Source: Xylanibacter ruminicola 23 (lineage in GTDB: Bacteria > Bacteroidota > Bacteroidia > Bacteroidales > Bacteroidaceae). Taken from it: a stretch of DNA of 32,000 nt. The stretch covers positions 3,570,001 through 3,602,000 of the forward strand of contig NC_014033.1 in NCBI RefSeq assembly GCF_000025925.1, given 5' to 3'. Below are positions 233 through 12,406 of the stretch, piece by piece. Positions within the stretch are counted from its first letter, which is position 1. Each line of letters begins with the position of its first letter. The translations under genes and the position numbers were made by a program. A model generated the notes under the pieces. That model saw only the letters and a list, made by a program, of their open reading frames with translations, did not search any database and had not been told where the DNA came from.

Positions 233-240
233 TAATTTTG
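233..240 (+). promoter_or_regulatory. Bacteroidota -7 promoter box (TAATTTTG)
   Basis: Exact TAnnTTTG match 27 nt upstream of the ATG at 268. A GTAGTAATT direct repeat (212-220 and 229-237) overlaps it. Confidence 0.55.
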
Positions 241-267
241 CAATCGAAAAATTATTTATCTAAATTA

Positions 268-2118
268 ATGAGACGAAGAATATTATTACTATTCATCATA
301 CCTGCATTCCTGCGCGTTTTTGCGCAGGAATCGCATGGATGGGAGACGTACTTGAATCAGGTGATGACGGCTGAGGATGCGGCATCGGAGGGGTGGCAGC
401 AGACGTACGATCTGCTGAGCGACCTGGTGCAGCACCCCATCAACATTAATACCGCCACACGTGAACAGCTGGAGGCCATCCCCTTTTTGTCGGCACAACA
501 GGTAGAGGAGCTGATGGCCTACCTGTACCGCTATGCACCGATGCAATCGACTGCCGAACTGCGTATGATGACACTGTTGACACCTGCCCAGCGCGAACTG
601 CTGAGCTACTGCGTTTATACAGGTGATAGCAAACCCAAACGCTACTTACACCACGAACTGACAGCCACCGCCAAGCTGCCACTAAGCAACGGGCACTGGT
701 TTCGCTACCAGCTGCAATATGGCGACCGGCTGAAGGCGGGGCTGGTGGGTGATTTGGATGCTGACGAACCCTTTATGAAGGGCCCCAACCGATGGGGATA
801 CGACTACTATGCACCGTATGTGCAGCTGAACCACTGGGGACGTATAGAGACACTGGTGCTGGGTAGCTACAGAGTGAGCATGGGTATGGGCTTGGTGATG
901 AACAACAGCTTTAGTTTAGGCAAGATAGCCATGCTACAGAACTTGGGGCGCAGCACAAACACCTTGCGGGCACACGCCTCGAGAACGGAGAACGCACTTC
1001 AAGGTGCAGGTATAACCCTGAAGTTAGGGCGCGGTTGGCAGACTACTGCGTTTGTGGGGTATGTGCCGATGGATGCCACGCTGAATAAGGACGGTAGCGC
1101 ACGTACGATACTAACCACTGGCTACCACCGTACGGAAGCCGAAATAGCTAAGAAATATAATTTGCACGCCCTGAAAACGGGTGGTAGTGTGCGTTATACG
1201 GGACATGGACTGCACATAGGGCTGAACGGGCTTTACGTGCATCTGGACCGGCCGCTGCAACCTAACACCAAACAGCTATACAACCTGTATAAACCGCAGG
1301 GCAGTAGTTTTGTGAACATGAGCACGGACTACGGCTATGCCAATAGCAAATGGTCACTGAACGGTGAAACGGCTGTGGATGGGCACGGGCATATAGCCAC
1401 TATCAACAGTGTGAGCGTGGCGATGGGTAGTAACCTGACGCTGATGGCACTGCAGCGCTATTACCAGTACCGTTATACCTCGCTGGATGCACAGAGCTAT
1501 AGCGATGGGGGCAGCGTGCAGAACGAAAGCGGCGTGTATGTGGGAGCTACCTGGCAGCCATCCTCTAAATGGCAGGTGGCGGCTTATGCCGACTGGGCTT
1601 ACTTTCCGTGGGTAAGGTACCGACAGCAGGCGGGTACTTACACAATGGACTATCTGCTACAGACAACCTATACCAGCAGCCGCTGGAAACTGAGCGGCAG
1701 GTACCGACTGAAAGCCAAGCAACAGGAACACCGCACCAGACTGGCAGCTGAATACAACTGGGACTGCGGCTTGGGTATGCGCACCCAGCTGGATGGCAAC
1801 TATGGTGCGGATGGAGGAACGGAGATAGGTGCTATGCTGAGTGAGAGCATGGCCTACACTTATAAGTGGTTGCGACTGAACGCTGGAGCGGGCTATTACC
1901 ATACGGATGGTTATAATAGCCGACTGTATGTGTATGAGAACGGACCGCTATATACCTATGCCATGCAGCAGCTGTATGGCGAGGGCGTACGTTATTGGCT
2001 GATGCTACGCGCTAATGCAGGAAAACACTTGCTGCTGACTGCCAAAATGGGCGTAAACAACAACTTTGAACGCGAATCGAAAACGGATATGATGCTTCAG
2101 CTGCGGCTTAAGATCTGA
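268..2118 (+). CDS. Secreted helix-hairpin-helix (ComEA-like) domain protein with a Tyr/Gly/Asn-rich C-terminal region, putatively an outer-membrane beta-barrel
   Basis: ATG at 268 gives the signal peptide MRRRILLLFIIPAFLRVFAQ. The HhH segment is ININTATREQLEAIPFLSAQQVEEL. About 500 further residues have alternating aromatic/Gly composition. The TTG at 238 in the ORF track is probably not the real start. Confidence 0.7.
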   Translation: MRRRILLLFIIPAFLRVFAQESHGWETYLNQVMTAEDAASEGWQQTYDLLSDLVQHPININTATREQLEAIPFLSAQQVEELMAYLYRYAPMQSTAELRMMTLLTPAQRELLSYCVYTGDSKPKRYLHHELTATAKLPLSNGHWFRYQLQYGDRLKAGLVGDLDADEPFMKGPNRWGYDYYAPYVQLNHWGRIETLVLGSYRVSMGMGLVMNNSFSLGKIAMLQNLGRSTNTLRAHASRTENALQGAGITLKLGRGWQTTAFVGYVPMDATLNKDGSARTILTTGYHRTEAEIAKKYNLHALKTGGSVRYTGHGLHIGLNGLYVHLDRPLQPNTKQLYNLYKPQGSSFVNMSTDYGYANSKWSLNGETAVDGHGHIATINSVSVAMGSNLTLMALQRYYQYRYTSLDAQSYSDGGSVQNESGVYVGATWQPSSKWQVAAYADWAYFPWVRYRQQAGTYTMDYLLQTTYTSSRWKLSGRYRLKAKQQEHRTRLAAEYNWDCGLGMRTQLDGNYGADGGTEIGAMLSESMAYTYKWLRLNAGAGYYHTDGYNSRLYVYENGPLYTYAMQQLYGEGVRYWLMLRANAGKHLLLTAKMGVNNNFERESKTDMMLQLRLKI

Positions 2119-3239
2119 TGATAGAGCTGATAAACCTGGCCGGCGACATCGGTGCCAGCGAAACGCTGCACATAGGTCTGGCTGCGCTGGATGCGGGCCT
2201 CGCGATGGGCTGAACCAATCAGCGAGCGGCGGATGGCATTGGCCATACCTAACACATCGCCTGGCGACACATAGATGTTGTCGGGGCCGCCAGCCTCTTC
2301 GAGACAGGAACCGCTGCAAGCCACTACTGGCAAACCGCAACGGATGGCCTCGATGATAGGTATGCCGAAACCCTCGTAAACACTGGGATAAACAAACACT
2401 TCGGCCATAGCATAAAGGGCGGGCAGGTGCTCGTCGGGGACACCATGCAGGATACGTACACGCTGCTGCAGGTTCTGACGCTGTGCGTAGGCCATCACCT
2501 TATGGGTGTAATCGGTGGGGCGGCCGATGATGACCAGCGACACATCGGAGGGCAGATAGAGCAGCGCCTGAACGGCCTGCAGCACATTCTTGCGCGTTTC
2601 GATAGAACCCACATTCAGGATGTAACGCTGGGGTAACTGGTAATGCTGGGCTACCTGCTGCAGCACGGCGGCATCGGTCTCGGCACCGAAACGCTGGGCA
2701 CAACTCTGGTAGATGAGCGAGATTTTCTCGTCGGGTACCTGACCGTACTGGATGATATCGTGCTTGGTACGCTCGCTGATGGCAATGATATGGGTGGCCT
2801 CGCGCAGGGTGCGACGGAACTTCCAGGTGTAGAGCTTGACATCGATGGGATTGTAAAACTCAGGATGGCGCAGGAATATCAAATCGTGGATGGTAACTAC
2901 GCTGGGGATGCCGCTCTGACTGATGCCAAGGGGCAGTTCGCCCGATAAGCCATGATAGAGCTGGATGCCATCGCGCTTAAGATCGGCTACGATACCCTTG
3001 GTACGCCAGTAGGCGTTGCCCAACGGCCATCGTTTGTTGGCAAACTTAAATGCTACATTGGGGCGCTCTATGATTTGGTTGCGCAGAGGGGCGCGACCGG
3101 CATCTGGGGCATAGAGGCTGAGCTGCAGGGGATACTGGGCCAGATCGTTGACCAACGTGCGGCCATAGGCACCAAGGCCTGTGCCGTTGCGAACAATGCG
3201 CTTGGCATCGAAACCGATATGAAGGGGCGTGTTACTCAT
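2097..3239 (-). CDS. GT-B fold glycosyltransferase (Glycos_transf_1 / CAZy GT4-like)
   Basis: Start MSNTPLHIGFDAKRI at ATG 3239. The C-terminal half carries the GT4 pattern (RKNV, VFVYPSVYEGFGIPIIEA). The ORF-track extension to 3413 overlaps the GtrA-like gene and is rejected. Confidence 0.8.
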   Translation of the reverse strand: MSNTPLHIGFDAKRIVRNGTGLGAYGRTLVNDLAQYPLQLSLYAPDAGRAPLRNQIIERPNVAFKFANKRWPLGNAYWRTKGIVADLKRDGIQLYHGLSGELPLGISQSGIPSVVTIHDLIFLRHPEFYNPIDVKLYTWKFRRTLREATHIIAISERTKHDIIQYGQVPDEKISLIYQSCAQRFGAETDAAVLQQVAQHYQLPQRYILNVGSIETRKNVLQAVQALLYLPSDVSLVIIGRPTDYTHKVMAYAQRQNLQQRVRILHGVPDEHLPALYAMAEVFVYPSVYEGFGIPIIEAIRCGLPVVACSGSCLEEAGGPDNIYVSPGDVLGMANAIRRSLIGSAHREARIQRSQTYVQRFAGTDVAGQVYQLYHQILSRS

Positions 3240-3246
3240 GATAATA

Positions 3247-3636
3247 CTATTGCTTTTTAAAGTGCTTGAATACAAAACGAACCATGATGAAATTGGCGGG
3301 CACAGCGATGGCCAGTACTGCCAATGGGGCCACAGCACGACTGAGACCCAACCACAGGAAGAAATTGAACAGCACGATGTGCAGCACGTAGTTGACTGCA
3401 TGGGCGCCGCCAAAACCTATGCCGTTGCGGGCTGAGGTTTTTTCGCGGAAGGTGAAGTGGGCCGACAGGTAGTAGTTGACTAAGAAACTAACGATATAGC
3501 CCACCGTATAGGCAATGTTAACCTCGATAAAGTGCTGCAGCAACCAGTACACACCGTAGTGGATGGCGGCGGCAGTGGTGCCCACAATACCGAAGCGAAC
3601 AATCTGACCAAATGTTTCCTTTTTATCCATGAACAT
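3247..3636 (-). CDS. GtrA-family small membrane protein (lipid-linked sugar translocation accessory)
   Basis: About 130 aa with four hydrophobic helices. The N-terminus has the typical GtrA pattern (FGIVGTTAAAIHYGVYWLL ... HFTF). ATG at 3636, or alternatively 3630. It sits 7 nt upstream of the GT4 gene. Confidence 0.8.
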   Translation of the reverse strand: MFMDKKETFGQIVRFGIVGTTAAAIHYGVYWLLQHFIEVNIAYTVGYIVSFLVNYYLSAHFTFREKTSARNGIGFGGAHAVNYVLHIVLFNFFLWLGLSRAVAPLAVLAIAVPANFIMVRFVFKHFKKQ

Positions 3637-3648
3637 GAAATTTTGGTG

Positions 3649-3656
3649 CAAAGATA
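3649..3656 (-). promoter_or_regulatory. -7 promoter box (TATCTTTG on minus strand) for the GtrA-like/GT4 operon
   Basis: Exact TAnnTTTG 12 nt upstream of the ATG at 3636. It forms part of the 12-bp inverted repeat. Confidence 0.55.
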
Positions 3657-3678
3657 CAAATAATTCGGTATAATTGTG

Positions 3679-3686
3679 TACCTTTG
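3679..3686 (+). promoter_or_regulatory. -7 promoter box (TACCTTTG) for the CE4/GT2/GT87 operon
   Basis: Exact TAnnTTTG 24 nt upstream of the ATG at 3711. Confidence 0.6.
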
Positions 3687-3710
3687 CACCAAATTATACC
3701 AATTATTATC

Positions 3711-4487
3711 ATGATACTATTGAGTTTTGATACCGAAGAGTTTGATGTGCCCCGCGAACATGGCGTGGATTTTACATTACAACAAGGTATGGAAGTTTCG
3801 AAGGAAGGCACGCGCCGCATATTGGACTGCTTGAAGCAGAACGGCGTGAAGGCTACCTTTTTTTGCACAGGCAATTTTGCAGAGAATGCACCCGAACTGA
3901 TGCAACGGATTATGGACGAAGGGCACGAGGTGGCCTGTCATGGCGTGGATCACTTTGAGCCGAAAGAGACTGACTTTGCCCGATCGAAGGAAATAGTGGA
4001 ACGGGTAACCGGACGAACGGTGTACGGCTACCGACAGCCACGTATGTTCCCCGTGGTGGAGAGCGAAATAAAGCGTGCGGGCTATCGCTATAACTCGAGT
4101 TTGAACCCTGCGTTCATTCCCGGCAGATACATGCATCTGACTGAACCCAGAACCTGGTTTATGAAGGATGGGGTGATGCAGATACCGGCTTCGGTAACAC
4201 CGCTGATACGATTCCCGCTGTTCTGGCTGGCACTGCACAACCTGCCACAGAGCGTGTACCACTGGCTGGTGAGAAGGGTGCTGAAGCACGATGGCTACTT
4301 TGTGACCTACTTTCACCCATGGGAGTTTTACGACCTGAAGGAGCACCCCGAGTTTAAGATGCCCTTTATTATCAAGAACCACAGCGGACGTGAGATGGCT
4401 GGGCGACTTGACAAGCTGATAAAGATGCTGAAAGCCCACGGCCACGAATTTATAACTTACACGGAATTTACTGACAAGCAACTATAA
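3711..4487 (+). CDS. Polysaccharide deacetylase family protein (CE4; ArnD/LgmC-like candidate)
   Basis: Starts MILLSFDTEEFD (CE4 motif 1, TFDD-like). Contains ATFFCTG and HEVACHGVDH (His-His metal motif). No signal peptide. ATG at 3711. Confidence 0.75.
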   Translation: MILLSFDTEEFDVPREHGVDFTLQQGMEVSKEGTRRILDCLKQNGVKATFFCTGNFAENAPELMQRIMDEGHEVACHGVDHFEPKETDFARSKEIVERVTGRTVYGYRQPRMFPVVESEIKRAGYRYNSSLNPAFIPGRYMHLTEPRTWFMKDGVMQIPASVTPLIRFPLFWLALHNLPQSVYHWLVRRVLKHDGYFVTYFHPWEFYDLKEHPEFKMPFIIKNHSGREMAGRLDKLIKMLKAHGHEFITYTEFTDKQL

Positions 4488-4506
4488 GATAACAACAAAC
4501 GAATGT

Positions 4507-5454
4507 ATGAAAACGGTAACAATTATACTGCCTGCCTATAACGAGGAGTCGTCGTTCGAGCTACTGAAAGAACGGATGGGCGAGGTGCTGAAACAGAACC
4601 CGGACTACAACTGGGAGTTTCTGCTGGTAAACGATGGCAGTAGCGACCATACGCTGCAGCAGATGATGCGACTGCACCGCGAAGACCTGCATTACAACTA
4701 TCTGGACCTGAGCCGCAACTACGGCAAGGAGATAGCGATGATGGCTGGTTTTGACTATGCCAAAGGCGATGCCGTAATAGTGATGGACGCCGACATGCAG
4801 CACCCGATAGACGTGATACCCGAGATGCTGCAATACTGGGAGCAGGGTTACGACGACGTGTATGCCACCCGACAGGACAGTAAGGAGAGTTGGCTGAAGC
4901 GTAAGACATCGCACTGGTACTACGAGGTGCTGCAATCGGTTACCAAGGTGCCCATACAGAAGGATACCGGTGACTTCAGACTGCTGGACCGCTCGTGTGT
5001 GGAGGCCTTGAAACAGATGCGCGAAACCGAACGTAACACCAAGGGTATGTACTCGTGGATAGGATTCCGCAAAAAGGGCATCGGCTACAAGCAGCTGGAG
5101 CGACAGACGGGTGAGAGCAAATGGAGCACACGCGCGCTGATGCACCTGGCACTGAACGGTATCATGTCGTACACCACCGCACCGCTGCGACTGGCATCGG
5201 TACTGGGACTGATCGTATCGTTTGCGGCTTTCCTGTATCTGATATACATTATTGTGATTACCAATTTGTATGGCGAGCCGGTTCAGGGTTATCCTACGAT
5301 GATGGTAACGATACTCTTCTTAGGTGGCATACAGCTGCTGAGCTTGGGCATCCTGGGTGAGTATGTGGCAAAGATTTTTAATGAAGTGAAGGGCCGACCG
5401 GGCTACTTCCTGAACTCGTATAATGGCGAACGAAACCATGTGGCAAAAAATTAA
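4507..5454 (+). CDS. Polyprenyl-phosphate glycosyltransferase, GT2 (GtrB/ArnC/DPM1-like)
   Basis: Contains IILPAYNEE, LVNDGSSD and MDADMQHP (DxD). Two C-terminal TM helices carry GILGEYVAKIFNEVKGRPGY, typical of GtrB/ArnC-type enzymes. Confidence 0.85.
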   Translation: MKTVTIILPAYNEESSFELLKERMGEVLKQNPDYNWEFLLVNDGSSDHTLQQMMRLHREDLHYNYLDLSRNYGKEIAMMAGFDYAKGDAVIVMDADMQHPIDVIPEMLQYWEQGYDDVYATRQDSKESWLKRKTSHWYYEVLQSVTKVPIQKDTGDFRLLDRSCVEALKQMRETERNTKGMYSWIGFRKKGIGYKQLERQTGESKWSTRALMHLALNGIMSYTTAPLRLASVLGLIVSFAAFLYLIYIIVITNLYGEPVQGYPTMMVTILFLGGIQLLSLGILGEYVAKIFNEVKGRPGYFLNSYNGERNHVAKN

Positions 5455-6565
5455 GCATATCAAAAACAAAGAACAGATATTATTTTGGTTGGGACTGATT
5501 ATCATGGTGGCAGCAACTGCCATCGAAACGCTGCGTGGCAGGGCCAGCAACTACTATGTGTATAGCGATGCCACCAGCATGTTCTGGCACGGACTGACAC
5601 CTTACACCCAGCAGTTTATTACCGACCATGGGCGCTATTTTCTTTATACACCCGTGTTTACCACCCTGTATGCACCTATCCTGCTGCTGCCCAAATGGTT
5701 AGGGCCGTTTGCATGGAACGGCATGCTGTATGCCCTGATGGTAACGGCCATCAGAACGCTGCCGGGCGAGGTGAACAAATACCGCACTAAGATTTTCGGA
5801 TTCCTGCTGTTGCTGATAGTGCAGGGCACCTTCTGTTTTCAGTATAACCTGGTGGTGTGCGCGCTGTTCCTGTTGGCCTTTACGCTGCTGGAGCGTAACA
5901 AGCCGCTGTGGGCGGTACTGCTGATTATGATTTCGGCTACCACTAAGATTTATGGCGGTATAGAGTTGGCGCTGCTGTTGTGCTATCCCAAAATGTGGCG
6001 TAACCTTGGCGCTGCGGTGCTGATGGGCGTGGGATTGCTGTTGCTGCCAGCCTTGAACCCGATGTTTGAGCACCCGCTTGACCTGTACCGACAGATGGGC
6101 GAGATGCTGACACAGCACGGCGATTCGGGTACCTGGGCAGGACTGCTGTTTGCACCCGTACTGCGCGATGTGCTGCTGCCAAACATGCGAGCCATACAGT
6201 TGGGTGTGCTGGCCGTATTGGCTGCCATCTTCTTCTGGAAGTACCGTTTGTGGAACAATTACAGATTCAGAGTAACGGCCTTAGCAGTGATGATGGGCTA
6301 CGTGATACTGTTTAGCGACAGTCCGGAAACACATACGTACCTGATTGCCTTGGCTGGCTACCAGATGGTGTTCTGGTTGCAACCCAAACGTACCACGATA
6401 GACTGGGTGATATTCTGGCTACTGTTCGTAAACTTCTGCATCTTCCCTGTAGATGCACTCTGTCCTGTAGCAGTATATAAATTCTTCCACAATAACTTCT
6501 GGTTTGATATCTATTGCATGACGCTGGCCTGGGTGCGCATGGTTTGGGCTGTGGTGAAGGCATAA
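5423..6565 (+). CDS. Polytopic membrane glycosyltransferase, GT-C fold (DUF2029/GT87-like), paralogue A
   Basis: At least 10 hydrophobic segments. Shares YFLY-P-F and TKIYG motifs with the neighbouring paralogue. The start is ATG 5423 or 5438, and either overlaps the GT2 3' end. Confidence 0.6.
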   Translation: MANETMWQKIKHIKNKEQILFWLGLIIMVAATAIETLRGRASNYYVYSDATSMFWHGLTPYTQQFITDHGRYFLYTPVFTTLYAPILLLPKWLGPFAWNGMLYALMVTAIRTLPGEVNKYRTKIFGFLLLLIVQGTFCFQYNLVVCALFLLAFTLLERNKPLWAVLLIMISATTKIYGGIELALLLCYPKMWRNLGAAVLMGVGLLLLPALNPMFEHPLDLYRQMGEMLTQHGDSGTWAGLLFAPVLRDVLLPNMRAIQLGVLAVLAAIFFWKYRLWNNYRFRVTALAVMMGYVILFSDSPETHTYLIALAGYQMVFWLQPKRTTIDWVIFWLLFVNFCIFPVDALCPVAVYKFFHNNFWFDIYCMTLAWVRMVWAVVKA

Positions 6566-7716
6566 TCCTTGGTGAGCATCTCGTAAATGAGCTTAAACCA
6601 GATGATAGCTACAGGCAGGGCCTTGAGCGAATAGGGCTTGATGAGCTGGCTCCATACTACCTTTGGAAAGAGGTCGGATGGCGACATCGACGTGATGATA
6701 AAGGCGAAGATGATGAGTGCCAGATCGCAGCGGTTGCGCTGCCAAGGACTGGTGAGATACCAGATGGCTACACCGGGCATGGCGATGATGTAGCTGTACG
6801 ACTCGGAACCGGTGCTGAACAGCACAATCGTCATGAGCGCTGAGGCTACGGCTGCCAGGCGGAACCCCTGATGGCGATACTGATCGAGTCGCAGATAAGG
6901 CAGAGCGAAGAGAATGGCACCAGGCAGGATAAGCCAGATATCGTTGTAACTGGCGATGCCTGATATCTTACGTACCATACCCAATAGTGAGATGTTCTGA
7001 CCGGCGGCAAACTGGTTGAGGTCGTTCTTATGTACCAGCACATCGTACCAGGCACCGTACTGGCCGCACACGTAATCGAACCCGAATACGAACATGGGCA
7101 GTACCGACAGAATGACCATCCAGGCTACAAACCAGCCTAAGAACTGGCGCTTATGGTGCGAGAAGGGGAAGAACGCCAAGCCCGCAATACCGTAGATTTT
7201 GGTGACAGTGCCCAAGGCGATGAGAAACGCCGCCCAGCAATCCTTCTGCTTCTGGGTGAGGTAATAGGTGAACAGGATGCAGGCTAAGATGAGACTGTTG
7301 CTCTCGGAATCGAGTATGCAGGTATAGGCTTCGACGGCCACAAACCACAGGATGAACAGCTGCTGACTGCGGGTGAAGAACGACTGGCGTATGCTCCAAT
7401 AAGGCACAAACGTGATGAGCAGCATCCAGATCAGTCGGCCTAACTGATAGGGCAGCACTGCCATGGGTGCCATGAGCAGCGGGAAGAGCGGTCCGTATAG
7501 AAAATAATTACCATCCTCGGGGTAGATAATATACAGTGGCATTTGTTGCCAGGCATGCCAGAACGAGTGGTAGAAGATGGAATAATCGAGGTCGAACTTA
7601 CCCTTGAGCCAAATGCGCAGCCAAGGGATGATGGCCATGATGAGCCATACGAAAAACACGACACGAAAGTCGGCCAGATAGTGTTTAATCTTAGAGGTTA
7701 ATACAGATAGTTTCAT
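6511..7716 (-). CDS. Polytopic membrane glycosyltransferase, GT-C fold (DUF2029/GT87-like), paralogue B
   Basis: ATG at 7716 (MKLSVLTSKIKHYL). Contains YFLYGPLFPLLMAP and TVTKIYGIAG, matching paralogue A. The TTG at 7743 in the ORF track lies inside the promoter box. Confidence 0.6.
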   Translation of the reverse strand: MKLSVLTSKIKHYLADFRVVFFVWLIMAIIPWLRIWLKGKFDLDYSIFYHSFWHAWQQMPLYIIYPEDGNYFLYGPLFPLLMAPMAVLPYQLGRLIWMLLITFVPYWSIRQSFFTRSQQLFILWFVAVEAYTCILDSESNSLILACILFTYYLTQKQKDCWAAFLIALGTVTKIYGIAGLAFFPFSHHKRQFLGWFVAWMVILSVLPMFVFGFDYVCGQYGAWYDVLVHKNDLNQFAAGQNISLLGMVRKISGIASYNDIWLILPGAILFALPYLRLDQYRHQGFRLAAVASALMTIVLFSTGSESYSYIIAMPGVAIWYLTSPWQRNRCDLALIIFAFIITSMSPSDLFPKVVWSQLIKPYSLKALPVAIIWFKLIYEMLTKDYAFTTAQTMRTQASVMQ

Positions 7717-7740: not shown

Positions 7741-7748
7741 CAAAGGTA
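7741..7748 (-). promoter_or_regulatory. -7 promoter box (TACCTTTG on minus strand) for GT87-like paralogue B
   Basis: Exact TAnnTTTG 24 nt upstream of the ATG at 7716. Confidence 0.6.
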
Positions 7749-7817: not shown

Positions 7818-8864
7818 ATGGAGAAGGAAATGAATTTTCTGGATAGAAATGAGTTTAATTTCGAACCCAGTGAGAAGGTGGTAGAAGCTATCCGCAATTT
7901 TGACCCAAAGACATTGTGTTTTTATACCCGCATTTACGATCAAGGCAAGAAAAGCGTTGTATCGGTAAAGTTGAGCGAGATATACGGCGTACCCGAAGAG
8001 CAGGTACTGCTGGCTTATGGTGGTGAGGACATTCTGAAGAATGCCATTCACTACTACCTGATGAAAGGCGACAACAAGAAAATACTGATACCCGAATACT
8101 CATGGTGGTACTACAACAAGGTGGCTGCTGAGTGCTACGGTACCTTTGAGATGTACCCCCTGCACGAACAGGAGGATACCTTTGCCTATGATGTGGATGA
8201 GGTGATAGAATATACCAACCGCATTCATCCCCGTATGCTGCTGTTGGCATCGCCTAACAACCCCACGGGTAACTGCTTGACACCCGAGGAGATCGGACGT
8301 ATCATGGAGAACATCCCCAGCGATACAATGGTGCTGATAGATGAGGCTTATGCCAGCTTTATTACCAGCGATACCGACTATATCGCACCACTGGTAAACA
8401 AATACCGCAACCTGATTATATCGCGTACGCTGAGTAAGTTCTACGGACTGCCCGGACTGCGTTGTGGCTTTGGCTTTATCGGTGCCGGACACGATCATTT
8501 TGTAAGCTATATCAACAAGTACTTGGGTTACAACCGCTTCTCGGAGGCTGTGGCTTTGGCTGCGCTCGATAGCGATGAGCACTACCGTAAGGTGGCCGAC
8601 GATATGGAGTGGGGCCGACAGCTGTACAAGAAAGCACTGGGCGACAAGCCTGGCTTTAAGGTGTATAAGAGTGTGGCCAACTTTATCCTGATAAAATATC
8701 CTGTAGAGATTAAGGAGGCCCTGCAGAAGGCGCTGGCCGACCAGAACTACAAGATTAAGTTTATGAGCGATAAGGGCCTGGAGGAGTGTGTGCGTATTAC
8801 CTTGGGTCGCAAGGAGCAGACACAGGTTGTAGTGGATACCATACTGAGAGTAATTGAACATTGA
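7818..8864 (+). CDS. Class I/II PLP-dependent enzyme of the HisC/CobD family (aminotransferase or phospho-amino-acid decarboxylase)
   Basis: Contains LLASPNNPTGN, LIDEAYASF and SRTLSKFYGLPGLRCGFG (PLP lysine in SK). The layout is typical of the histidinol-phosphate aminotransferase family. An alternative ATG lies at 7830. Confidence 0.8.
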   Translation: MEKEMNFLDRNEFNFEPSEKVVEAIRNFDPKTLCFYTRIYDQGKKSVVSVKLSEIYGVPEEQVLLAYGGEDILKNAIHYYLMKGDNKKILIPEYSWWYYNKVAAECYGTFEMYPLHEQEDTFAYDVDEVIEYTNRIHPRMLLLASPNNPTGNCLTPEEIGRIMENIPSDTMVLIDEAYASFITSDTDYIAPLVNKYRNLIISRTLSKFYGLPGLRCGFGFIGAGHDHFVSYINKYLGYNRFSEAVALAALDSDEHYRKVADDMEWGRQLYKKALGDKPGFKVYKSVANFILIKYPVEIKEALQKALADQNYKIKFMSDKGLEECVRITLGRKEQTQVVVDTILRVIEH

Positions 8865-8883
8865 CCATTGACCATTGAACATT
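8853..8883. repeat. Tandem heptamer array ATTGAAC-ATTGACC-ATTGACC-ATTGAAC-ATT
   Basis: Read directly. It spans the upstream stop codon (8862-8864) and ends 1 nt before the ATG at 8884. It places TGA in all three plus-strand frames (8855, 8862, 8869, 8876). Confidence 0.95.
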
Positions 8884-9612
8884 ATGATAGGTGTGATATT
8901 GGCGGCGGGAATGGCCAAGAGACTGCGCCCGCTTACTGACGAGAAACCCAAATGCCTGCTGGAGGTTGGTGGTAAAACGCTGTTGCAGCGTACGGTTGAC
9001 GCGATGATAAGCGCCGGCGTAAAGGAGTTTGTGGTAGTAACAGGCTATCGCGAAAACATGATTCGTGAATTCCTAACTGTCAATTATCAATTGTCAATTA
9101 TCAATTATATCGACAACGTCGATTTTGAGCATAACAACAACATTTTCTCGTTGTGGCTGGCCATGCAGAAACTGCACGGACAAGAGGTGCTGCTGATGGA
9201 TAGCGACATACTGTGCGATCCAGAGGCTGTGCGCCGTGTGGCCCGTAAAACCAACCCCGCCTTGGCCATGCAGCAGCACGAGCTGGGCGAGGAGGAGATG
9301 AAGATTGTGGTTGACGAGGCCGGACGTATTACTGAGATAAGCAAAACCTGCAGTCCTGCCGACGCCATTGGCGAGAGTGTGGGTATCGAGAAGATGACAC
9401 CCGCCTATACCGAGGCCATCTATCAGGAACTGCGCAAGATGATATTGGATGAGAACCTGATAGATATCTTCTACGAGCGCGCCTTTGAGCGACTGATTCC
9501 ACAAGGACATACGTTTGAAGTGGTAGATACCACCGACCTGTTCAGTTACGAGCTCGACACCCCCGAGGACTTGGAAAAAGCTTCGGCTGCATTACCAAAA
9601 GAATTGTATTAA
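8884..9612 (+). CDS. LicC-like nucleotidyltransferase (phospho-base/phospho-alcohol cytidylyltransferase family)
   Basis: Contains MIGVILAAGMAKRLRPLTDEKPKCLL (nucleotide-binding loop), NNNIFSLWLA (LicC-like) and MDSDIL. ATG at 8884 is preferred over the TTG at 8875. Confidence 0.8.
   Translation: MIGVILAAGMAKRLRPLTDEKPKCLLEVGGKTLLQRTVDAMISAGVKEFVVVTGYRENMIREFLTVNYQLSIINYIDNVDFEHNNNIFSLWLAMQKLHGQEVLLMDSDILCDPEAVRRVARKTNPALAMQQHELGEEEMKIVVDEAGRITEISKTCSPADAIGESVGIEKMTPAYTEAIYQELRKMILDENLIDIFYERAFERLIPQGHTFEVVDTTDLFSYELDTPEDLEKASAALPKELY
9079..9108. repeat. Exact 14-bp tandem duplication GTCAATTATCAATT x2, equivalent to four CAATTRT heptamers, inside the LicC-like CDS
   Basis: Read directly: 9079-9092 equals 9093-9106. 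The heptamer phasing is CAATTAT, CAATTGT, CAATTAT, CAATTAT over 9081-9108. Confidence 0.95.
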
Positions 9613-9613
9613 T

Positions 9614-10495
9614 ATGGATAAACCTCTGTTCTCGATATTGATCCCTACCTGGAACAACCTGAAGTTCCTGAAGATTTGTGTGGATAGCATCCGCAAAAAC
9701 TCGACGTATCCGCACGAGATTCTGATTCATGTGAACGATGGTAGCGACGGCACGCTGGAGTGGGTAAAGGCCGAGGGACTGAAATATACGCACTCGCCCG
9801 AGAACATCGGTGTGTGCTTTGCACTGAACGGTTTGCGCCCATTGGCCACCACCGACTACATACTGTTTATGAACGACGATATGTATGTGTTGCCCGACTG
9901 GGATAAGAACCTGTACGAGGAGATAGAGCGTATCGGACATAAGATGTTCTTCCTGTCATCTACCCTGATTCAGCCACGCCCATTCTTCTGTAAGAGCGTG
10001 ATTGCACCAGCCGACTTTGGACAGACCGTAGAGACCTTTGACGAACAGAGACTGCTGAACGAATATAAGAACCTGCCACACTACGATTGGAAGGGCGCTA
10101 CATGGCCACCAAACGTGGTGCATAAGGATATCTGGGACTTGGTAGGCGGCTACTCGATTGAGTATTCGCCAGGCATGTATAGCGATCCCGACTTCTCGGC
10201 TAAGCTGTGGAAGGCGGGTGTAAGAATCTTCAAAGGCATTGATAAGAGTCGTGTGTACCATTTTGAGGCACGCTCAACCCATCGCATTGTGAAGAACGAT
10301 GGCAGTACGCAGTTTCTGAGAAAATGGGGCATCACATCGGCATCGTTTATGCGCGATGTGCTGCAGCGCGGCGAACGCTGGGACAGCCAGAACGACACCA
10401 GTGCCGCCCTGAAGAAAGACCTGACAAGAAGTAAGCTGAAGAAAGCCCTGACGATATTCCGTGATGTGAAAATCAAGAATATCTGGGAGGATTAA
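9614..10495 (+). CDS. Glycosyltransferase family 2
   Basis: Contains FSILIPTWNN, VNDGSDGT and MNDDMYVLPDW (DxD). It starts 1 nt after the LicC-like stop. Confidence 0.8.
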   Translation: MDKPLFSILIPTWNNLKFLKICVDSIRKNSTYPHEILIHVNDGSDGTLEWVKAEGLKYTHSPENIGVCFALNGLRPLATTDYILFMNDDMYVLPDWDKNLYEEIERIGHKMFFLSSTLIQPRPFFCKSVIAPADFGQTVETFDEQRLLNEYKNLPHYDWKGATWPPNVVHKDIWDLVGGYSIEYSPGMYSDPDFSAKLWKAGVRIFKGIDKSRVYHFEARSTHRIVKNDGSTQFLRKWGITSASFMRDVLQRGERWDSQNDTSAALKKDLTRSKLKKALTIFRDVKIKNIWED

Positions 10496-11325
10496 CCCTT
10501 CATATTGGCACGCTGATCATCGTACTGGCGATAGGGCAGCTGATAGTCGAGATAATGAAAATCGTGCTGTCGCTGTTCGTCGTGCTTTGGGATGGTCATA
10601 TAATCGCCGTATTTGGTAGCCAGGTAGGTATCGAAATGCTCAACGCCCATAAACGTGATATCCTCGAACTTGATGGGTGTGGGTTGACCTAATACAGCCT
10701 TGTTGATGATGCCGTTCTTGCCATCATCGTAATCGGCTATCAAATCGCACTTGTCGTAATCGTAGTGCATCATAATGCGGCGCATCTTCTGCTGCACATA
10801 GTGGTTGGTAAACAGCTTCTGGCACAGCAAAGGCACTACGGCACTGAGATCCTTACCATGTTTGAACGGATCGCGGTGGATGTAGTAGATAACACGCTTC
10901 CAGAACTCGTAGCGCGCAAAGTTAAGGCGCTGCAACAGTTTGTTGGCACAAACACCATCCAAGGGGAACACATCGATATACAAACCACCGATATAGTTGA
11001 TATGCTCGCGTTCAATCAGCGTGGTGCTGGCATCCTGGATTTTACCGAAGGGACCTGGGTAGTTGGGATCGGTCTCGGCACAAACGGCCTCGAATGGCTT
11101 GGGCAGCCACTCGTGGGCATGAGCCATCAGTGTGTCGTAATCCTTACGGGGCATGGCGATATCCATATCATCATCCCAGGGAATAAAGCCCTTGTGGCGC
11201 ACTGCACCCAGCATGGTGCCTGCCCAGAGATAATAGCGCAGGTTGTGTTCCTGACATACTTTATCGACGGCCTGAAGAATCTTCAGGATGTGGAGTTGAA
11301 GGGGACGGATATCGTAACTTGCCAT
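10492..11325 (-). CDS. LicD-family phosphotransferase (CDP-X:glycan phospho-X transferase)
   Basis: Contains YYLWAGTMLGAVRHKGFIPWDDDMDIAMPRKDY (LicD signature with DxD), then YIDVFPLD. It overlaps the converging GT2 by 4 nt. Confidence 0.8.
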   Translation of the reverse strand: MASYDIRPLQLHILKILQAVDKVCQEHNLRYYLWAGTMLGAVRHKGFIPWDDDMDIAMPRKDYDTLMAHAHEWLPKPFEAVCAETDPNYPGPFGKIQDASTTLIEREHINYIGGLYIDVFPLDGVCANKLLQRLNFARYEFWKRVIYYIHRDPFKHGKDLSAVVPLLCQKLFTNHYVQQKMRRIMMHYDYDKCDLIADYDDGKNGIINKAVLGQPTPIKFEDITFMGVEHFDTYLATKYGDYMTIPKHDEQRQHDFHYLDYQLPYRQYDDQRANMKG

Positions 11326-11431: not shown

Positions 11432-12406
11432 ATGAAGGTTCTCTACTATATTGTTTTAGCCGTTTGGTATGTGTTCTCATTACTGCCATTACGTGTACAT
11501 TACTTCATCAGCGACCTGCTGTTCTGGTTGCTGTATGGCGTATTGGGCTATCGTAAGAAGGTGATAAGAAGAAACATCAAAGAGTCGTTCCCCGAGAAAA
11601 CTGATGACGAGAGATACAGGATAGAACGCGGATTCTACCACTTTTTCTGTGATTACATCGTGGAGAGTGTGAAACTGATGACGATGACACCCGAGAACCT
11701 GAAGCGCCGTATGGTGTTTAAGGGGGTAGAGCAGATTGATGAGGCTATCAATTCGGGGCAGTCGTGCGCCGTGTATCTGGGGCATCTGTGCAACTGGGAG
11801 TGGATAACATCGTTGCCACTCTGGATGAAGTCGGACGCGCAATTAGGACAGATTTATCATCCTATCGAGAATAAGGATTTCGACCGCTTGTTCCTGCGCT
11901 CGCGCCAGCGTATGGGAGCCGTTTGTATCCCCATGCAGGATACGCTGCGAAGAATGGTGGAGTACCGCAGGGCTAAGCAGCCTATCGTTATCGGATTTAT
12001 CTCGGACCAGAAGCCCCATTGGGTGAATATCCACCACTGGATAGATTTCCTGCATCACGATACACCCGTGCTCACTGGTACTGAGCGTATTGCCAAGAAG
12101 ATGAATTATGCGGTGTTCTTCATGGATGTGCGTCGTGTAAAGCGTGGCTACTATGAGGCCGAAGTGATTCCTATGACCCGCGAGCCACAGCAGCTGAAGG
12201 ATTACGAACTCACAGATATGTACTTTGATTTGTTGGAGAAGAGCATCAAGCGTGCGCCTGAGTTCTGGTTGTGGAGTCACGACCGCTGGAAGCGTACACG
12301 TGCTGAGTTTAACGAGCGTTTCGAGGTGATCGACGGTAAGGTGATAGCTAAGGATCATCCCGACAATAAGCCCGCGCCTCCCAAGAAACCTTGGTATAAG
12401 TTCTAA
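11432..12406 (+). CDS. Lipid A late acyltransferase family (LpxL/HtrB-type lysophospholipid acyltransferase)
   Basis: N-terminal TM anchor, then the FPEK motif in RRNIKESFPEKTDDE, and GHLCNWEW (HX4E catalytic motif of the LpxL family). Confidence 0.75.
   Translation: MKVLYYIVLAVWYVFSLLPLRVHYFISDLLFWLLYGVLGYRKKVIRRNIKESFPEKTDDERYRIERGFYHFFCDYIVESVKLMTMTPENLKRRMVFKGVEQIDEAINSGQSCAVYLGHLCNWEWITSLPLWMKSDAQLGQIYHPIENKDFDRLFLRSRQRMGAVCIPMQDTLRRMVEYRRAKQPIVIGFISDQKPHWVNIHHWIDFLHHDTPVLTGTERIAKKMNYAVFFMDVRRVKRGYYEAEVIPMTREPQQLKDYELTDMYFDLLEKSIKRAPEFWLWSHDRWKRTRAEFNERFEVIDGKVIAKDHPDNKPAPPKKPWYKF

Follow-up and report, generated by a model that had tools for sequence, protein, structure and literature searches.

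A conserved Bacteroidota gene cluster proposed to couple de-N-acetylation of a lipid-carried sugar to periplasmic glycosylation

The window analyzed here, a 32,000-nucleotide stretch of the genome of Xylanibacter ruminicola 23 (NC_014033.1), a Prevotella-family member from the rumen, contains six neighboring genes of a proposed lipid-carrier-dependent glycosylation system (Table 1). Each falls above its Pfam gathering score in the family that an initial annotation, made from the letters alone, had foreseen. A GtrA-family gene and a GT4 glycosyltransferase gene of GT-B fold, which lies downstream of gtrA and is co-transcribed with it, form a minus-strand operon that diverges from a CE4 deacetylase–GT2–GT87-A operon; a second GT87 gene, GT87-B, converges on the latter. 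The stretch from 11432 to 17901, with lpxL-, LtaS- and msbA-type genes, is context rather than a proven part of the system.

Table 1. Coordinates of the genes and other features within the window.
Feature	Position	Strand	Evidence
GT4	2097-3236	-	Pfam Glycos_transf_1 9e-25, Glyco_transf_4 5e-15
GtrA	3247-3636	-	Pfam GtrA_DPMS_TM 7.5e-18, domain full-length
Divergent promoter region (putative)	3637-3710	.	17-nt inverted repeat, one TAnnTTTG -7 box per arm
CE4	3711-4487	+	Pfam Polysacc_deac_1 2.3e-17; 258 aa
GT2, GtrB/ArnC/PgfS-type	4507-5454	+	Pfam Glycos_transf_2 3e-31
GT87-A, GT-C-type polytopic transferase	5423-6565	+	Pfam GT87 1.3e-14
GT87-B, GT-C-type polytopic transferase	6511-7716	-	Pfam GT87 7.5e-28
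lpxL-type lipid A acyltransferase, context	11432-12406	+	Pfam
LtaS-type membrane phosphotransferase, first, context	12403-14283	-	Pfam
LtaS-type membrane phosphotransferase, second, context	14280-16091	-	Pfam
msbA-type ABC exporter, context	16075-17901	-	Pfam

The divergent operons had been thought to share one promoter region, and the 74-bp gap between GtrA and CE4 holds one predicted -7 box per strand. A motif scan places matches to TAnnTTTG, the known Bacteroidetes -7 consensus, at 3649-3656 (minus) and 3679-3686 (plus), both inside the arms of an inverted repeat identified by repeat search (3642-3658 and 3677-3693; 94% complementary, 18-nt spacer). Resemblance to the consensus suggests a promoter role for these boxes, of which the whole window holds 33 against 16.6 expected. 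GT87-B is a separate transcription unit, with its own box at 7741-7748 (minus), 24 nt upstream of the ATG at 7716.

The CE4 gene starts at ATG 3711 rather than TTG 3684, because homologues begin at that position. Its product carries the motifs that had drawn attention to it, SFDTEE (residues 5-10) and HGVDH (residues 77-81), and topology prediction finds no signal peptide and no hydrophobic or transmembrane segment; in the AlphaFold2 (AF2) model (pLDDT 93, pTM 0.92) the N-terminus forms strand beta-1 of a NodB-fold barrel. Residues D7, E9, H77, H81, R108 and H202, including the acid/His/His metal-ligand set (D/E-H-H), are kept in 36-40 homologues, with identities as low as 30%. Foldseek returns 3rxz and HpPgdA (3qbu, TM 0.69) among the top matches, along with ArnD at rank 8 (8t0j, TM 0.61). 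We rejected orthology with ArnD: the NCBIfam ArnD model gives no match, and the family profile meets ArnD at E = 0.004 only. With DUF3473 slightly under cut-off in Pfam (1e-6), the protein is a cytoplasmic NodB-fold enzyme of the DUF3473/XrtA/PuuE-HpPgdA branch, which we propose to be a polyprenyl-phosphate-HexNAc deacetylase. One precedent offered by the initial annotation is doubtful. Bordetella Lgm had been listed among de-N-acylation systems using CE4 enzymes, but LgmC is a homologue of NaxD. The NaxD of Francisella, which acts on Und-P-GalNAc, belongs to the YdjC family and not to CE4 (PMC11279074).

The predicted GtrB/ArnC-type nature of the GT2 was confirmed. Besides its DAD motif, it matches Synechocystis GtrB (5EKP) over its full length (E = 2e-81) and ArnC structures at 3e-46, with NCBIfam matches to PgfS (7e-87) and ArnC (7e-53) that both lie under the equivalog cut-offs. 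As judged from its sequence, it is a full-length GtrB/ArnC/PgfS-type polyprenyl-phosphate glycosyltransferase, comprising a GT2 catalytic domain and two predicted C-terminal transmembrane helices (233-251 and 265-283). The sugar that it carries is not readable from sequence, and any assignment, including ours below, is indirect. GtrA is a small polytopic membrane protein, presumed to flip the lipid-linked sugar and/or to act as its scaffold, while the GT4 might build or extend the acceptor at the cytoplasmic side; no NCBIfam model attains its cut-off for the GT4, and the weak matches include MshA, BshA and GlcNAc-PG synthase.

The GT87-A reading frame shares 32 nt with the end of GT2, including its stop, and 55 nt with the 3' end of GT87-B. 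It must start at 5423, because orthologues conserve both the N-terminus and TM1, and this region aligns with GT87-B from residue 10 of the latter; automated calls of 353 aa in public contigs matching the window lose TM1. A 'Y-x-D-(A/S)-T' motif after TM1 is likewise conserved in orthologues. One locus (L006) encodes GT87-A as a fusion with a periplasmic FGE-sulfatase domain. For GT87-B, a moderately confident AF2 model (pLDDT 68, pTM 0.70; below 50 in the loop expected to hold the catalytic Asp) adopts a GT-C fold; Foldseek ranks PimE first (9dm7, probability 1.0, TM 0.51/0.55), followed by PIGU, ALG6 and GPI-MT-I (TM 0.59). That the two proteins are paralogues stood up to comparison (~25% identity; hhalign of GT87-A against the GT87-B family, probability 100%, E = 7e-42), but their equivalence did not.

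GT87-B is the ancestral partner, orthologous to the GT87 of a phylum-wide GT87-GT2-CE4 triad, whereas GT87-A is a divergent, added paralogue of restricted lineage. GT87-B shares 49% identity with the triad GT87 of B. salyersiae and 37-40% with those of Pseudopedobacter, Flavobacterium and Chitinophagaceae; GT87-A is 24-28% identical to triad GT87s of other classes, and its orthologues occur in just 7 of 80 loci. The triad forms tight, overlapping operons in Sphingobacteriia, Flavobacteriia and Chitinophagia, and the gene set is syntenic far outside the circle of close relatives, including in other Bacteroidota classes.

The closest association is that of CE4 with GT2. Of 80 Bacteroidales species, 72 have a GtrB-type GT2 no more than 3 kb from the CE4 orthologue; in 52 of 74 loci it lies directly 3' of CE4, and the pair is also found alone amid unrelated genes. 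The adjoining GT2s are of divergent types (31-94% identity), all full-length and GtrB/PgfS/ArnC-like, while CE4 meanwhile remains 63-97% identical. Gene fusions tie the same partners together. A natural GtrA-CE4 fusion (P0122) is 48% identical to the window GtrA and 64% to its CE4; its cluster holds 343 member sequences, and in two loci (L081 and L080) such a fusion precedes GT2 and GT87-A. In GT2-CE4 fusions, the GT2 halves best match polyprenyl/dolichyl-phosphate glycosyltransferase families; on a metagenomic contig of 68% GC, GT87 comes after a fusion of this kind. More distantly, a CE4-methyltransferase fusion adjoins a short GT2 and two PMT_2 (ArnT-like) GT-C genes. A search of the 8 kb around CE4 detected GtrA in only 16 of the 33 fully flanked loci, and GT87 likewise in 16 of 33; in roughly half of them, then, the complete system is often dispersed or incomplete.

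Taken with the folds, this adjacency, the triad and the fusions support the initial proposal that an Und-P-HexNAc is deacetylated to Und-P-HexN and handed on by a GT-C enzyme, a donor pathway that we consider probable. At the cytoplasmic face, GT2 would load undecaprenyl phosphate with an N-acetylated amino sugar, drawn from a nucleotide sugar that is most likely UDP-GlcNAc or UDP-GalNAc. The soluble, membrane-associated CE4 would then remove the N-acetyl group from the still carrier-bound sugar, leaving Und-P-HexN with a free amine. GtrA may scaffold this deacetylation and/or flip the product, after which GT87-B would attach the amino sugar to a periplasmic-face acceptor, and GT87-A would modify a second acceptor or site. 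The E. coli annotation of ArnC/ArnD/ArnEF/ArnT offers a precedent for this order of steps, and NaxD a precedent for deacetylating a carrier-bound sugar (PMC11279074). Several observations count against the scheme: the sparser linkage of GtrA and GT87, the low confidence of the GT87-B catalytic loop, and the failure of the GT87-A and GT87-B candidate Asp residues to share an alignment column (hhalign). GtrB itself uses glucose, and HpPgdA and PuuE, the closest characterized relatives of CE4, work on soluble or polymeric substrates.

An alternative would keep every enzyme class but divide the labor differently, as in GPI- and PIM-like glycolipid pathways. There, PIG-A (or MshA and BshA on their own acceptors) parallels the GT4; PIG-L, MshB and BshB parallel CE4; and DPM1 with PIG-M, or Ppm1 with PimE, parallels GT2 with GT87. 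The GT4 would place GlcNAc on a membrane lipid for CE4 to deacetylate, with GT2, GtrA and GT87 merely supplying and transferring a neutral hexose from Und-P-hexose, such that CE4 and GT2 adjoin through a shared pathway and not a shared substrate. All the necessary classes are present, GT87-B most resembles PimE and a GPI mannosyltransferase, and the weak matches of the GT4 include enzymes of such logic. We nonetheless find this improbable: the constant partner of CE4 is GT2 (31 of 33 fully flanked loci) and not the GT4 (within 8 kb in 9 of 33), both the pair and the triad exist without a nearby GT4, and the fusion partners of CE4 are GT2 and GtrA, with none of the ten multidomain homologues examined showing a GT4. 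Less credible still, to the point of being very unlikely, is a role in which CE4 deacetylates a nucleotide- or Und-PP-linked di-N-acetyl sugar for a glycan such as the A-LPS/type IX secretion anchor, unrelated to the adjoining GT2. Its precedent is P. gingivalis VimE, a putative CE4-family deacetylase of a Bacteroidales glycan pathway with relatives tied to PEP-CTERM systems (PMC7468200), and the best NCBIfam match of our CE4 is indeed the XrtA (PEP-CTERM) system deacetylase (8e-28). That match, however, reaches 97 bits where the cut-off is 276, a WbmS-like Pfam match also falls under cut-off, the window yielded neither VimA-like (FemAB-type) nor Wbp-pathway genes, and the GT2/GtrA fusions and GT87 triad are left unexplained.

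For the acceptor, the lipid A-core region of LPS/LOS, modified before export, is the leading candidate, as the initial annotation had supposed. Linkage to lpxL, msbA and LtaS-like genes recurs and leads us to favor LPS, if only tentatively: of the 33 loci with full flanks, 13 have an LtaS-like gene close by, 7 have lpxL and 4 have msbA, and the gene order varies. The B. salyersiae locus, for instance, reads GT9-lpxL-GT4-CE4-GT2-GT87-GtrA-LtaS-like, and an LtaS-like gene lies near CE4 in Flavobacterium too. This rearranged linkage strengthens the supposition without proving it. The lpxL/msbA linkage could in part be inherited synteny inside one order. The first sulfatase-family (LtaS-type) protein of the window has VP1736 and LtaS as its best PDB matches. 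Literature searches turned up no description of Prevotella or Bacteroides lipid A bearing a free-amine hexosamine.

The same donor could instead serve periplasmic or outer-membrane proteins, a capsular or O-polysaccharide, or another glycolipid, a prospect that we regard as rather unlikely. PgfS/PgfM and GtrB/GT-C systems glycosylate proteins in streptococci, and PgfS is the best NCBIfam match of the GT2. The CE4-GT2 pair lies away from LPS genes in many loci, the Pseudopedobacter and Flavobacterium triads lie inside larger polysaccharide-type clusters, and the FGE-sulfatase fusion of GT87-A hints at a macromolecular acceptor. Characterized GT87 enzymes, such as PimE, act on glycolipids other than LPS (PMC12041525). 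Against this stand the recurrence of lpxL, msbA, GT9 and LtaS-like genes in rearranged orders and, to our knowledge, the targeting of lipid A by every characterized Gram-negative Und-P-amino-sugar system with a deacylation step.

On balance, and with moderate confidence, we favor a periplasmic, lipid-carrier-dependent glycosylation system of GtrA/GtrB/GT-C logic with built-in de-N-acetylation, for which lipid A-core would be the most likely acceptor. The gene set is conserved across the phylum Bacteroidota and was previously without study. If the proposal is true, removal of an acetyl group from the amino sugar would expose a positive charge on an outer-surface molecule, probably lipopolysaccharide.

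The locus is best read as a lipid-carrier glycosylation pathway of the kind proposed in the initial annotation. The GtrB/ArnC-type glycosyltransferase (GT2) would make Und-P-HexNAc at the cytoplasmic face of the membrane, where the CE4 deacetylase would strip off the acetyl group; GtrA would scaffold and/or flip the deacetylated product, and GT87-B, in this lineage together with GT87-A, would move the free-amine sugar in the periplasm. ORF calls and Pfam searches returned exactly the gene content that had been described beforehand, and the same gene order recurs on five metagenomic contigs identified by exact-sequence look-up. The closest genome is the rumen Prevotellaceae MAG RUG13469 (L063), whose CE4 is 97% identical to that of the window.

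Genes of the glycosylation locus in window coordinates
Feature	Position	Strand	Evidence
GT4	2097-3236	-	ORF + Pfam
GtrA	3247-3636	-	ORF + Pfam
CE4 with weak DUF3473 tail	3711-4487	+	ORF + Pfam
GT2	4507-5454	+	ORF + Pfam
GT87-A, polytopic	5423-6565	+	ORF + Pfam
GT87-B, polytopic	6511-7716	-	ORF + Pfam

Two start sites were corrected. CE4 is placed at 3711 because its homologues begin there and the N-terminus is then barrel strand beta-1. GT87-A is placed at 5423, as a 380-aa ORF overlapping the GT2 stop, because its first transmembrane helix is kept in orthologues and its profile alignment to GT87-B begins at residue 1 of A and residue 10 of B; gene calls on public contigs (L001-L004) begin at an internal ATG, giving 353 aa and losing this conserved helix (window 5423-5503). 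The 74-bp gtrA/CE4 intergenic region contains a 17-nt inverted repeat (3642-3658 and 3677-3693; 94% complementary, 18-nt spacer), each arm of which bears one TAnnTTTG box, one per strand, for the divergent operons. TAnnTTTG is the -7 promoter consensus of Bacteroidetes; a motif scan shows it to be enriched across the window (33 matches against 16.6 expected), and another box lies 24 nt upstream of the GT87-B ATG. The placement of these boxes predicts three transcription units: gtrA-GT4, CE4-GT2-GT87A and GT87B by itself. The mirrored gtrA and CE4 promoters could share one regulator site.

GT2 matches the GtrB structure 5EKP over residues 4-304 (E = 2e-81) and the ArnC structure over residues 2-303 (E = 3e-46). 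Its DAD motif aligns with that of GtrB (Pfam Glycos_transf_2, 3e-31), and hydropathy peaks at 233-251 and 265-283, aligned with the GtrB transmembrane region, mark a C-terminal hairpin; full-length structure matches and hydropathy therefore agree with the earlier description of a GtrB/ArnC-type enzyme with a DAD motif and two C-terminal helices. GT2 falls short of the NCBIfam equivalog cut-offs (292 against 500 bits for PgfS, 180 against 529 bits for ArnC), and hence its sugar specificity is not fixed by family assignment.

The AF2 model of CE4 is a NodB barrel (pLDDT 93, pTM 0.92) with 70 PDB matches at E <= 0.001; among the matches listed, almost all are CE4 structures, the nearest being the M. 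smegmatis deacetylase 3rxz, H. pylori HP0310 and a Burkholderia homologue, with Salmonella ArnD at rank 8. Across 36 homologues, down to ~30% identity, residues D7, E9, H77, H81, R108 and H202 either do not vary or reach at least 90% conservation, and all are invariant in a second set of 40. H77-x3-H81 lines up with HAWDH in ArnD, and D7-x-E9 parallels ArnD D9-x-D11 when the N-termini are read side by side. The modelled fold, with its conserved acid, His-x3-His, Arg and His, upholds the assignment of a CE4 enzyme with SFDTEE and HGVDH motifs, and hydropathy shows no signal peptide, in agreement with the earlier claim that there is none, and no transmembrane segment. By sequence, the protein falls in the XrtA/PuuE/HpPgdA branch, for which the source names are only 'polysaccharide deacetylase' or 'DUF3473 domain-containing protein'. 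Pfam gives only Polysacc_deac_1, DUF3473 and a weak WbmS-like match, with no YdjC-superfamily domain. ArnD orthology was rejected, as no ArnD model appears among the NCBIfam matches at E <= 1e-3. The ArnD structure 8T0J was not found by phmmer with the CE4 query; the CE4 family profile reaches it at E = 0.0037 over ~50 residues, hhalign of that profile against E. coli ArnD gives a probability of 95.8%, and Foldseek a TM of 0.61. The kinship of the two enzymes is at the level of the CE4 superfamily only. An invariant hydrophobic motif specific to the family, R167-x-P-L-F-W-L, could be a membrane- or lipid-binding element.

Both polytopic proteins exceed the Pfam GT87 gathering cut-off of 25 bits (55.0 for GT87-A, 98.3 for GT87-B). 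GT87 is the sole Pfam domain in each, with no PMT or PMT_2 (ArnT-type, GT83) domain, in line with the earlier view of transferases that are GT87-like rather than ArnT/GT83-like. The two align end to end as profiles (E = 7e-42) at ~25% identity. The AF2 model of GT87-B is moderate (pLDDT 68, pTM 0.70), and every one of its best PDB matches is a GT-C or GT-C-like protein: PimE, PIGU, ALG6, GPI mannosyltransferase I (GPI-MT-I) and EmbC. The GT-C fold initially proposed is accordingly predicted for GT87-B from its model's matches to PimE, ALG6, GPI-MT-I and EmbC, and for GT87-A by alignment to the GT87-B family only. A PDB sequence search returned no relative of either protein, PimE being reached only by fold comparison. 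PimE carries its catalytic base, D58, on the tip of the first periplasmic juxtamembrane helix, with K195 as the phosphate-binding Lys (PMC12041525). In GT87-B, TM1 is followed by D51-L-D53-Y, at least 90% conserved in a loop with pLDDT <50; in GT87-A the D53 column holds Asn, and a conserved Asp follows six positions further on. These conserved Asp residues, candidates for the catalytic base, occupy the same region as PimE D58 but different columns of a poorly modelled loop, and the D55/D58/Y62 spacing of PimE (PMC12041525) is not reproduced. An invariant Lys in 'TK(I/L)(Y/F)G', a candidate counterpart of K195, is common to GT87-A and GT87-B. GtrA matches Pfam GtrA_DPMS_TM (7.5e-18) over profile positions 1-115 of 117, and a simple hydropathy scan resolves, at its threshold, two of the four expected transmembrane segments.

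Association across genomes supports a common system for these proteins. The 36-sequence CE4 alignment held no stretch conserved enough for a genome scan, and a 10-sequence subset was used instead; it matched at least 591 genomic stretches. Window proteins were mapped onto the best 80, all Bacteroidales-type loci, while other classes were reached by profile search and contig look-ups. Among these best 80 of at least 591 loci, GT2 lies within 3 kb of CE4 in 72; of the 74 with enough sequence, 52 have it directly downstream in the same orientation. The 33 loci in which CE4 is flanked by 8 kb or more on either side include GT2 in 31, GtrA in 16, GT87 in 16, an LtaS-like gene in 13 and GT4 in nine. 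CE4 is the most constant partner of GT2, and in some genomes (for instance L008) the pair is found by itself, flanked by glycoside hydrolase and phosphate-transporter genes. The CE4-adjacent GT2 of other loci is often 31-36% identical to that of the window; the idea that most genomes carry a different kind of enzyme there, prompted by this figure, was rejected, as these proteins are again full-length GtrB/ArnC/PgfS-type. GT2 type differs even between close relatives of the window (L006 against L063) that keep CE4, GtrA and GT87-A, and because CE4 is retained as the type varies, the GT2 types look like interchangeable partners of a conserved CE4.

The association reaches beyond Bacteroidales. 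A tight GT87-GT2-CE4 operon is present in Pseudopedobacter saltans, Flavobacterium sp. N1994 and one Chitinophagaceae MAG, in the last of which the triad stands alone among unrelated genes; the CE4 module is known from Bacteroidales, Sphingobacteriia, Flavobacteriia and Chitinophagia. The triad GT87 of other classes is 37-40% identical to GT87-B versus 24-28% to GT87-A, and is the orthologue of the former rather than the latter. Gene fusions point the same way. A GtrA-CE4 fusion forms a 343-member cluster from many independent contigs, and in L081 and L080 is followed by GT2 and GT87-A. GT2-CE4 fusions have a GT2 half that best matches polyprenyl/dolichyl-phosphate GT families; on a 68% GC contig the fusion has a GT87 gene immediately 3', and upstream of the fusion on a 66% GC contig lies the gene of an unannotated protein of 594 aa in which eight or more segments are hydrophobic. 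A cytoplasmic CE4 fits its fusion to the C-termini of GtrA and GT2. Linkage counts, GT2 swapping, triads and fusions together argue, from gene arrangement, that CE4 is tied to the lipid-carrier GT2, GtrA and GT-C transferases far more specifically than to its other neighbours. Chance co-location is rejected by the linkage counts, the triads in other classes and the high-GC fusion with GT87. The gene set is syntenic in other genomes, as anticipated, and the genetic linkage of GT2, small membrane protein and GT-C is conserved across Bacteroidales and other loci.

Some carriers depart from this layout. Distant CE4 members (P0183, P0201, P0252 and L094 4384-5778) have a C-terminal SAM methyltransferase fused, which may serve N-methylation of the freed amine; that of L094 has B12-radical-SAM genes, a short GT2 and two PMT_2 (ArnT-like) GT-C genes around it. 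In L006 (11739-13655) and L020, both close relatives of the window, GT87-A has a C-terminal FGE-sulfatase (sulfatase-modifying-factor-like) domain of ~250 residues that is presumably periplasmic. Ten contigs of Methanobrevibacter-labelled MAGs (L022, L023, L028, L030, L038, L040, L050, L053, L057, L061) carry CE4 at 71-80% amino acid identity, with flanks of 31-42% GC and a CE4 gene 4-11 GC points above its locus. The L022 flanks encode archaeal-looking YcaO, AIM24, CBS and TrkH together with a 473-aa ORF without a Pfam match, and most of the ten have a GtrB/PgfS-type GT2 within ~3 kb of CE4. This pattern suggests bacterium-to-methanogen transfer in the rumen, not a binning error. Bacteroidales-type CE4 loci at ~49-52% GC also occur in an 'Escherichia coli' bin (L066) and a 'Bacteroides fragilis' bin (L039); the E. 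coli label is most likely mis-binning.

By analogy, the locus would work like the Arn, Flm/Nax and PpgS systems. With the Arn system of E. coli and Salmonella, which modifies lipid A with Ara4N, it shares a GT2 with full-length homology to ArnC, a cytoplasmic de-N-acylase of CE4 fold that would act once the carrier is loaded, a small membrane protein proposed for flipping and a GT-C transferase, likely in the same order of steps (ArnC/ArnD/ArnEF/ArnT). Unlike in Arn, the deacetylase is not an ArnD orthologue, the candidate flippase is GtrA-family rather than ArnE/F (SMR-like), and the transferases are GT87 rather than GT83/PMT_2. ArnA and ArnB genes are absent here, so that Ara4FN is excluded as the sugar and acetyl, not formyl, is probably what the enzyme removes. 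In Francisella, the ArnC-like GT2 FlmF2 makes Und-P-HexNAc and the GT-C enzyme FlmK moves the Und-P-HexN sugar to lipid A. The YdjC-family enzyme NaxD deacetylates Und-P-GalNAc on the carrier (PMC11279074). The FlmF2/NaxD/FlmK route, and likewise A. baumannii NaxD and Bordetella LgmA-D, would parallel ours in passing from Und-P-HexNAc through Und-P-HexN to GT-C transfer; it differs in deacetylase (YdjC-family there, CE4 here), transferase (ArnT-like there, GT87 here) and acceptor (lipid A there, a proposed one here).

For the GalN of mycobacterial and corynebacterial arabinogalactan, PpgS makes polyprenyl-P-GalNAc with the GtrA-like Rv3632, a deacetylase 'as yet unidentified' acts on it, and the GT-C Rv3779 carries out transfer (PMC9671496). 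The likely parallel lies in a carrier synthase, a GtrA-like protein, deacetylation and GT-C transfer of a free-amine sugar; the differences are a short GT2 without the C-terminal hairpin and arabinogalactan as acceptor. The GT2 half of the GT2-CE4 fusions on high-GC contigs matches the PpgS profile. Three-component schemes of GT2, small membrane protein and GT-C (PMC11127046, PMC7389260), such as GtrA/GtrB/GtrC of O-antigen glucosylation, CsbB/GtcA/YfhO and GacI/J/K/L, likewise combine a GtrB orthologue, a GtrA-family protein and a polytopic GT-C-type transferase, and by eye roughly half of the aligned residues of the window GT2 are identical in Synechocystis GtrB; however, they have no deacetylase, move Glc or GlcNAc unchanged, and use GT-C enzymes of other families. 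PimE with Ppm1 shares Pfam GT87 with both transferases, is the top structural match of GT87-B and has the polyprenyl-monophospho-sugar type of donor expected here, but is only ~16% identical to GT87-B and moves mannose to phosphatidylinositol mannoside. The locus proteins are thus members of the GtrB-type GT2, CE4, GtrA and GT87 families and fall outside ArnD, NaxD/YdjC and ArnT. Our literature search found no characterised system combining these four families, and none in Bacteroidota, in keeping with the claim that the combination matches no characterised system; it likewise gave nothing relevant on a GT87/DUF2029 system characterised in Bacteroidota or on lipid A of Prevotella or Bacteroides modified with hexosamine. 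Free glucosamine is reportedly present in the LPS core of Tannerella forsythia.

The carrier sugar may vary between lineages. In P. saltans (L087 8773-12127), the genes after the triad encode an LPG_synthase_TM membrane protein, two FdtA proteins, a hexapeptide acetyltransferase and a DegT aminotransferase, a set that hints at a dTDP-activated 3-acetamido-3,6-dideoxyhexose rather than GlcNAc or GalNAc. As to the acceptor, lpxL, two LtaS-type genes and msbA lie within 10 kb in the window; B. salyersiae (L055) has the order GT9-lpxL-GT4-CE4-GT2-GT87-GtrA-LtaS-like; and in Flavobacterium (L088) an orthologue of the window's first LtaS-type gene (38% identity) is found 3' of the triad. Because such lpxL/msbA/LtaS-like neighbourhoods recur, in rearranged order, in other loci (lpxL in seven and msbA in four of the 33 fully flanked ones), we tentatively favour LPS (lipid A-core), at somewhat less than an even chance; the counts are inflated by shared ancestry, and many loci have no LPS-gene link. 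The main rival keeps the same donor pathway and gives it an acceptor other than LPS.

Two further readings assign CE4 to a different pathway, and both are disfavoured. In a GPI/PIM-like scheme CE4 would act on the product of GT4; the linkage counts and the fusions count against this pairing, and the idea that CE4 belongs with GT4 was down-weighted. Alternatively, CE4 could play a part like that of VimE of P. gingivalis, likewise a CE4-family putative sugar de-N-acetylase of a Bacteroidales surface-glycan pathway, Wbp/Vim (PMC7468200). VimE, however, has vimA, vimF and Wbp genes nearby where CE4 has GT2, GtrA and GT87; VimA (FemAB-like) and Wbp genes were not found among the annotated ORFs of the 32-kb window, and a VimE-like role leaves the fusions unexplained.

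Other genes in the window may add to the same surface. Window 7818-11325 encodes a HisC/CobD-like PLP enzyme, a LicC-like cytidylyltransferase (best PDB matches LicC 1JYK and PntC 6PD1), a GT2 and a LicD phosphotransferase, and resembles a cassette for the synthesis of a CDP-activated amino-alcohol phosphate and its transfer to a glycan. These genes are interleaved with the CE4/GT2 cassette in L026 and L079, so that both modifications may be made to one structure. Between lpxL and msbA lie two tandem LtaS-type (not EptA-type) membrane phosphotransferase genes (12403-16091), the first of which also has an orthologue 3' of the triad genes in B. salyersiae. They resemble GacH of the Gac system, the LtaS-family enzyme through which the GlcNAc side chain receives glycerol phosphate, and recall GacH-type decoration of a sugar delivered by a lipid carrier. 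The product of window 238-2118 is 626 aa long and combines a signal-like segment at its N-terminus with a helix-hairpin-helix motif; its gene converges on that of GT4 with a 22-nt overlap, and orthologues flank the cassette in six other loci.

A broader reading, which we consider possible but on balance rather unlikely, is that the DUF3473-type CE4 is a general, unrecognised polyprenyl-phosphate amino-sugar de-N-acetylase; that with a GtrB-type GT2 and GT87 it makes up a phylum-wide Bacteroidota system putting a cationic free-amine sugar on LPS, and would then be an unstudied factor in the resistance to cationic peptides and the immune silence of the dominant bacteria of gut and rumen; and that the GT2-CE4 fusions of high-GC bacteria may fill a vacant deacetylase role elsewhere, for example in actinobacterial arabinogalactan GalN. 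For deacetylation steps that other, related pathways have yet to assign (PMC9671496), this enzyme type is a candidate. A large orphan branch of CE4 enzymes would gain a concrete function from the proposed role, which would also extend GT87 chemistry past the mycobacterial mannosyltransferases. The logic of the system is familiar; the module itself is phylum-wide, unstudied and directly testable in cultured carriers, which include Bacteroides salyersiae DSM 18765, Segatella paludivivens DSM 17968, Prevotella jejuni DSM 26989 and Pseudopedobacter saltans DSM 12145. A positively charged sugar on the envelope is a classic route to resistance to polymyxin and host peptides and to altered innate immune recognition, and to our knowledge the only well-known surface-charge mechanism in Bacteroidota is lipid A dephosphorylation. 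If the proposed pathway holds, this dedicated, conserved module would be a second mechanism of charge change in the phylum.
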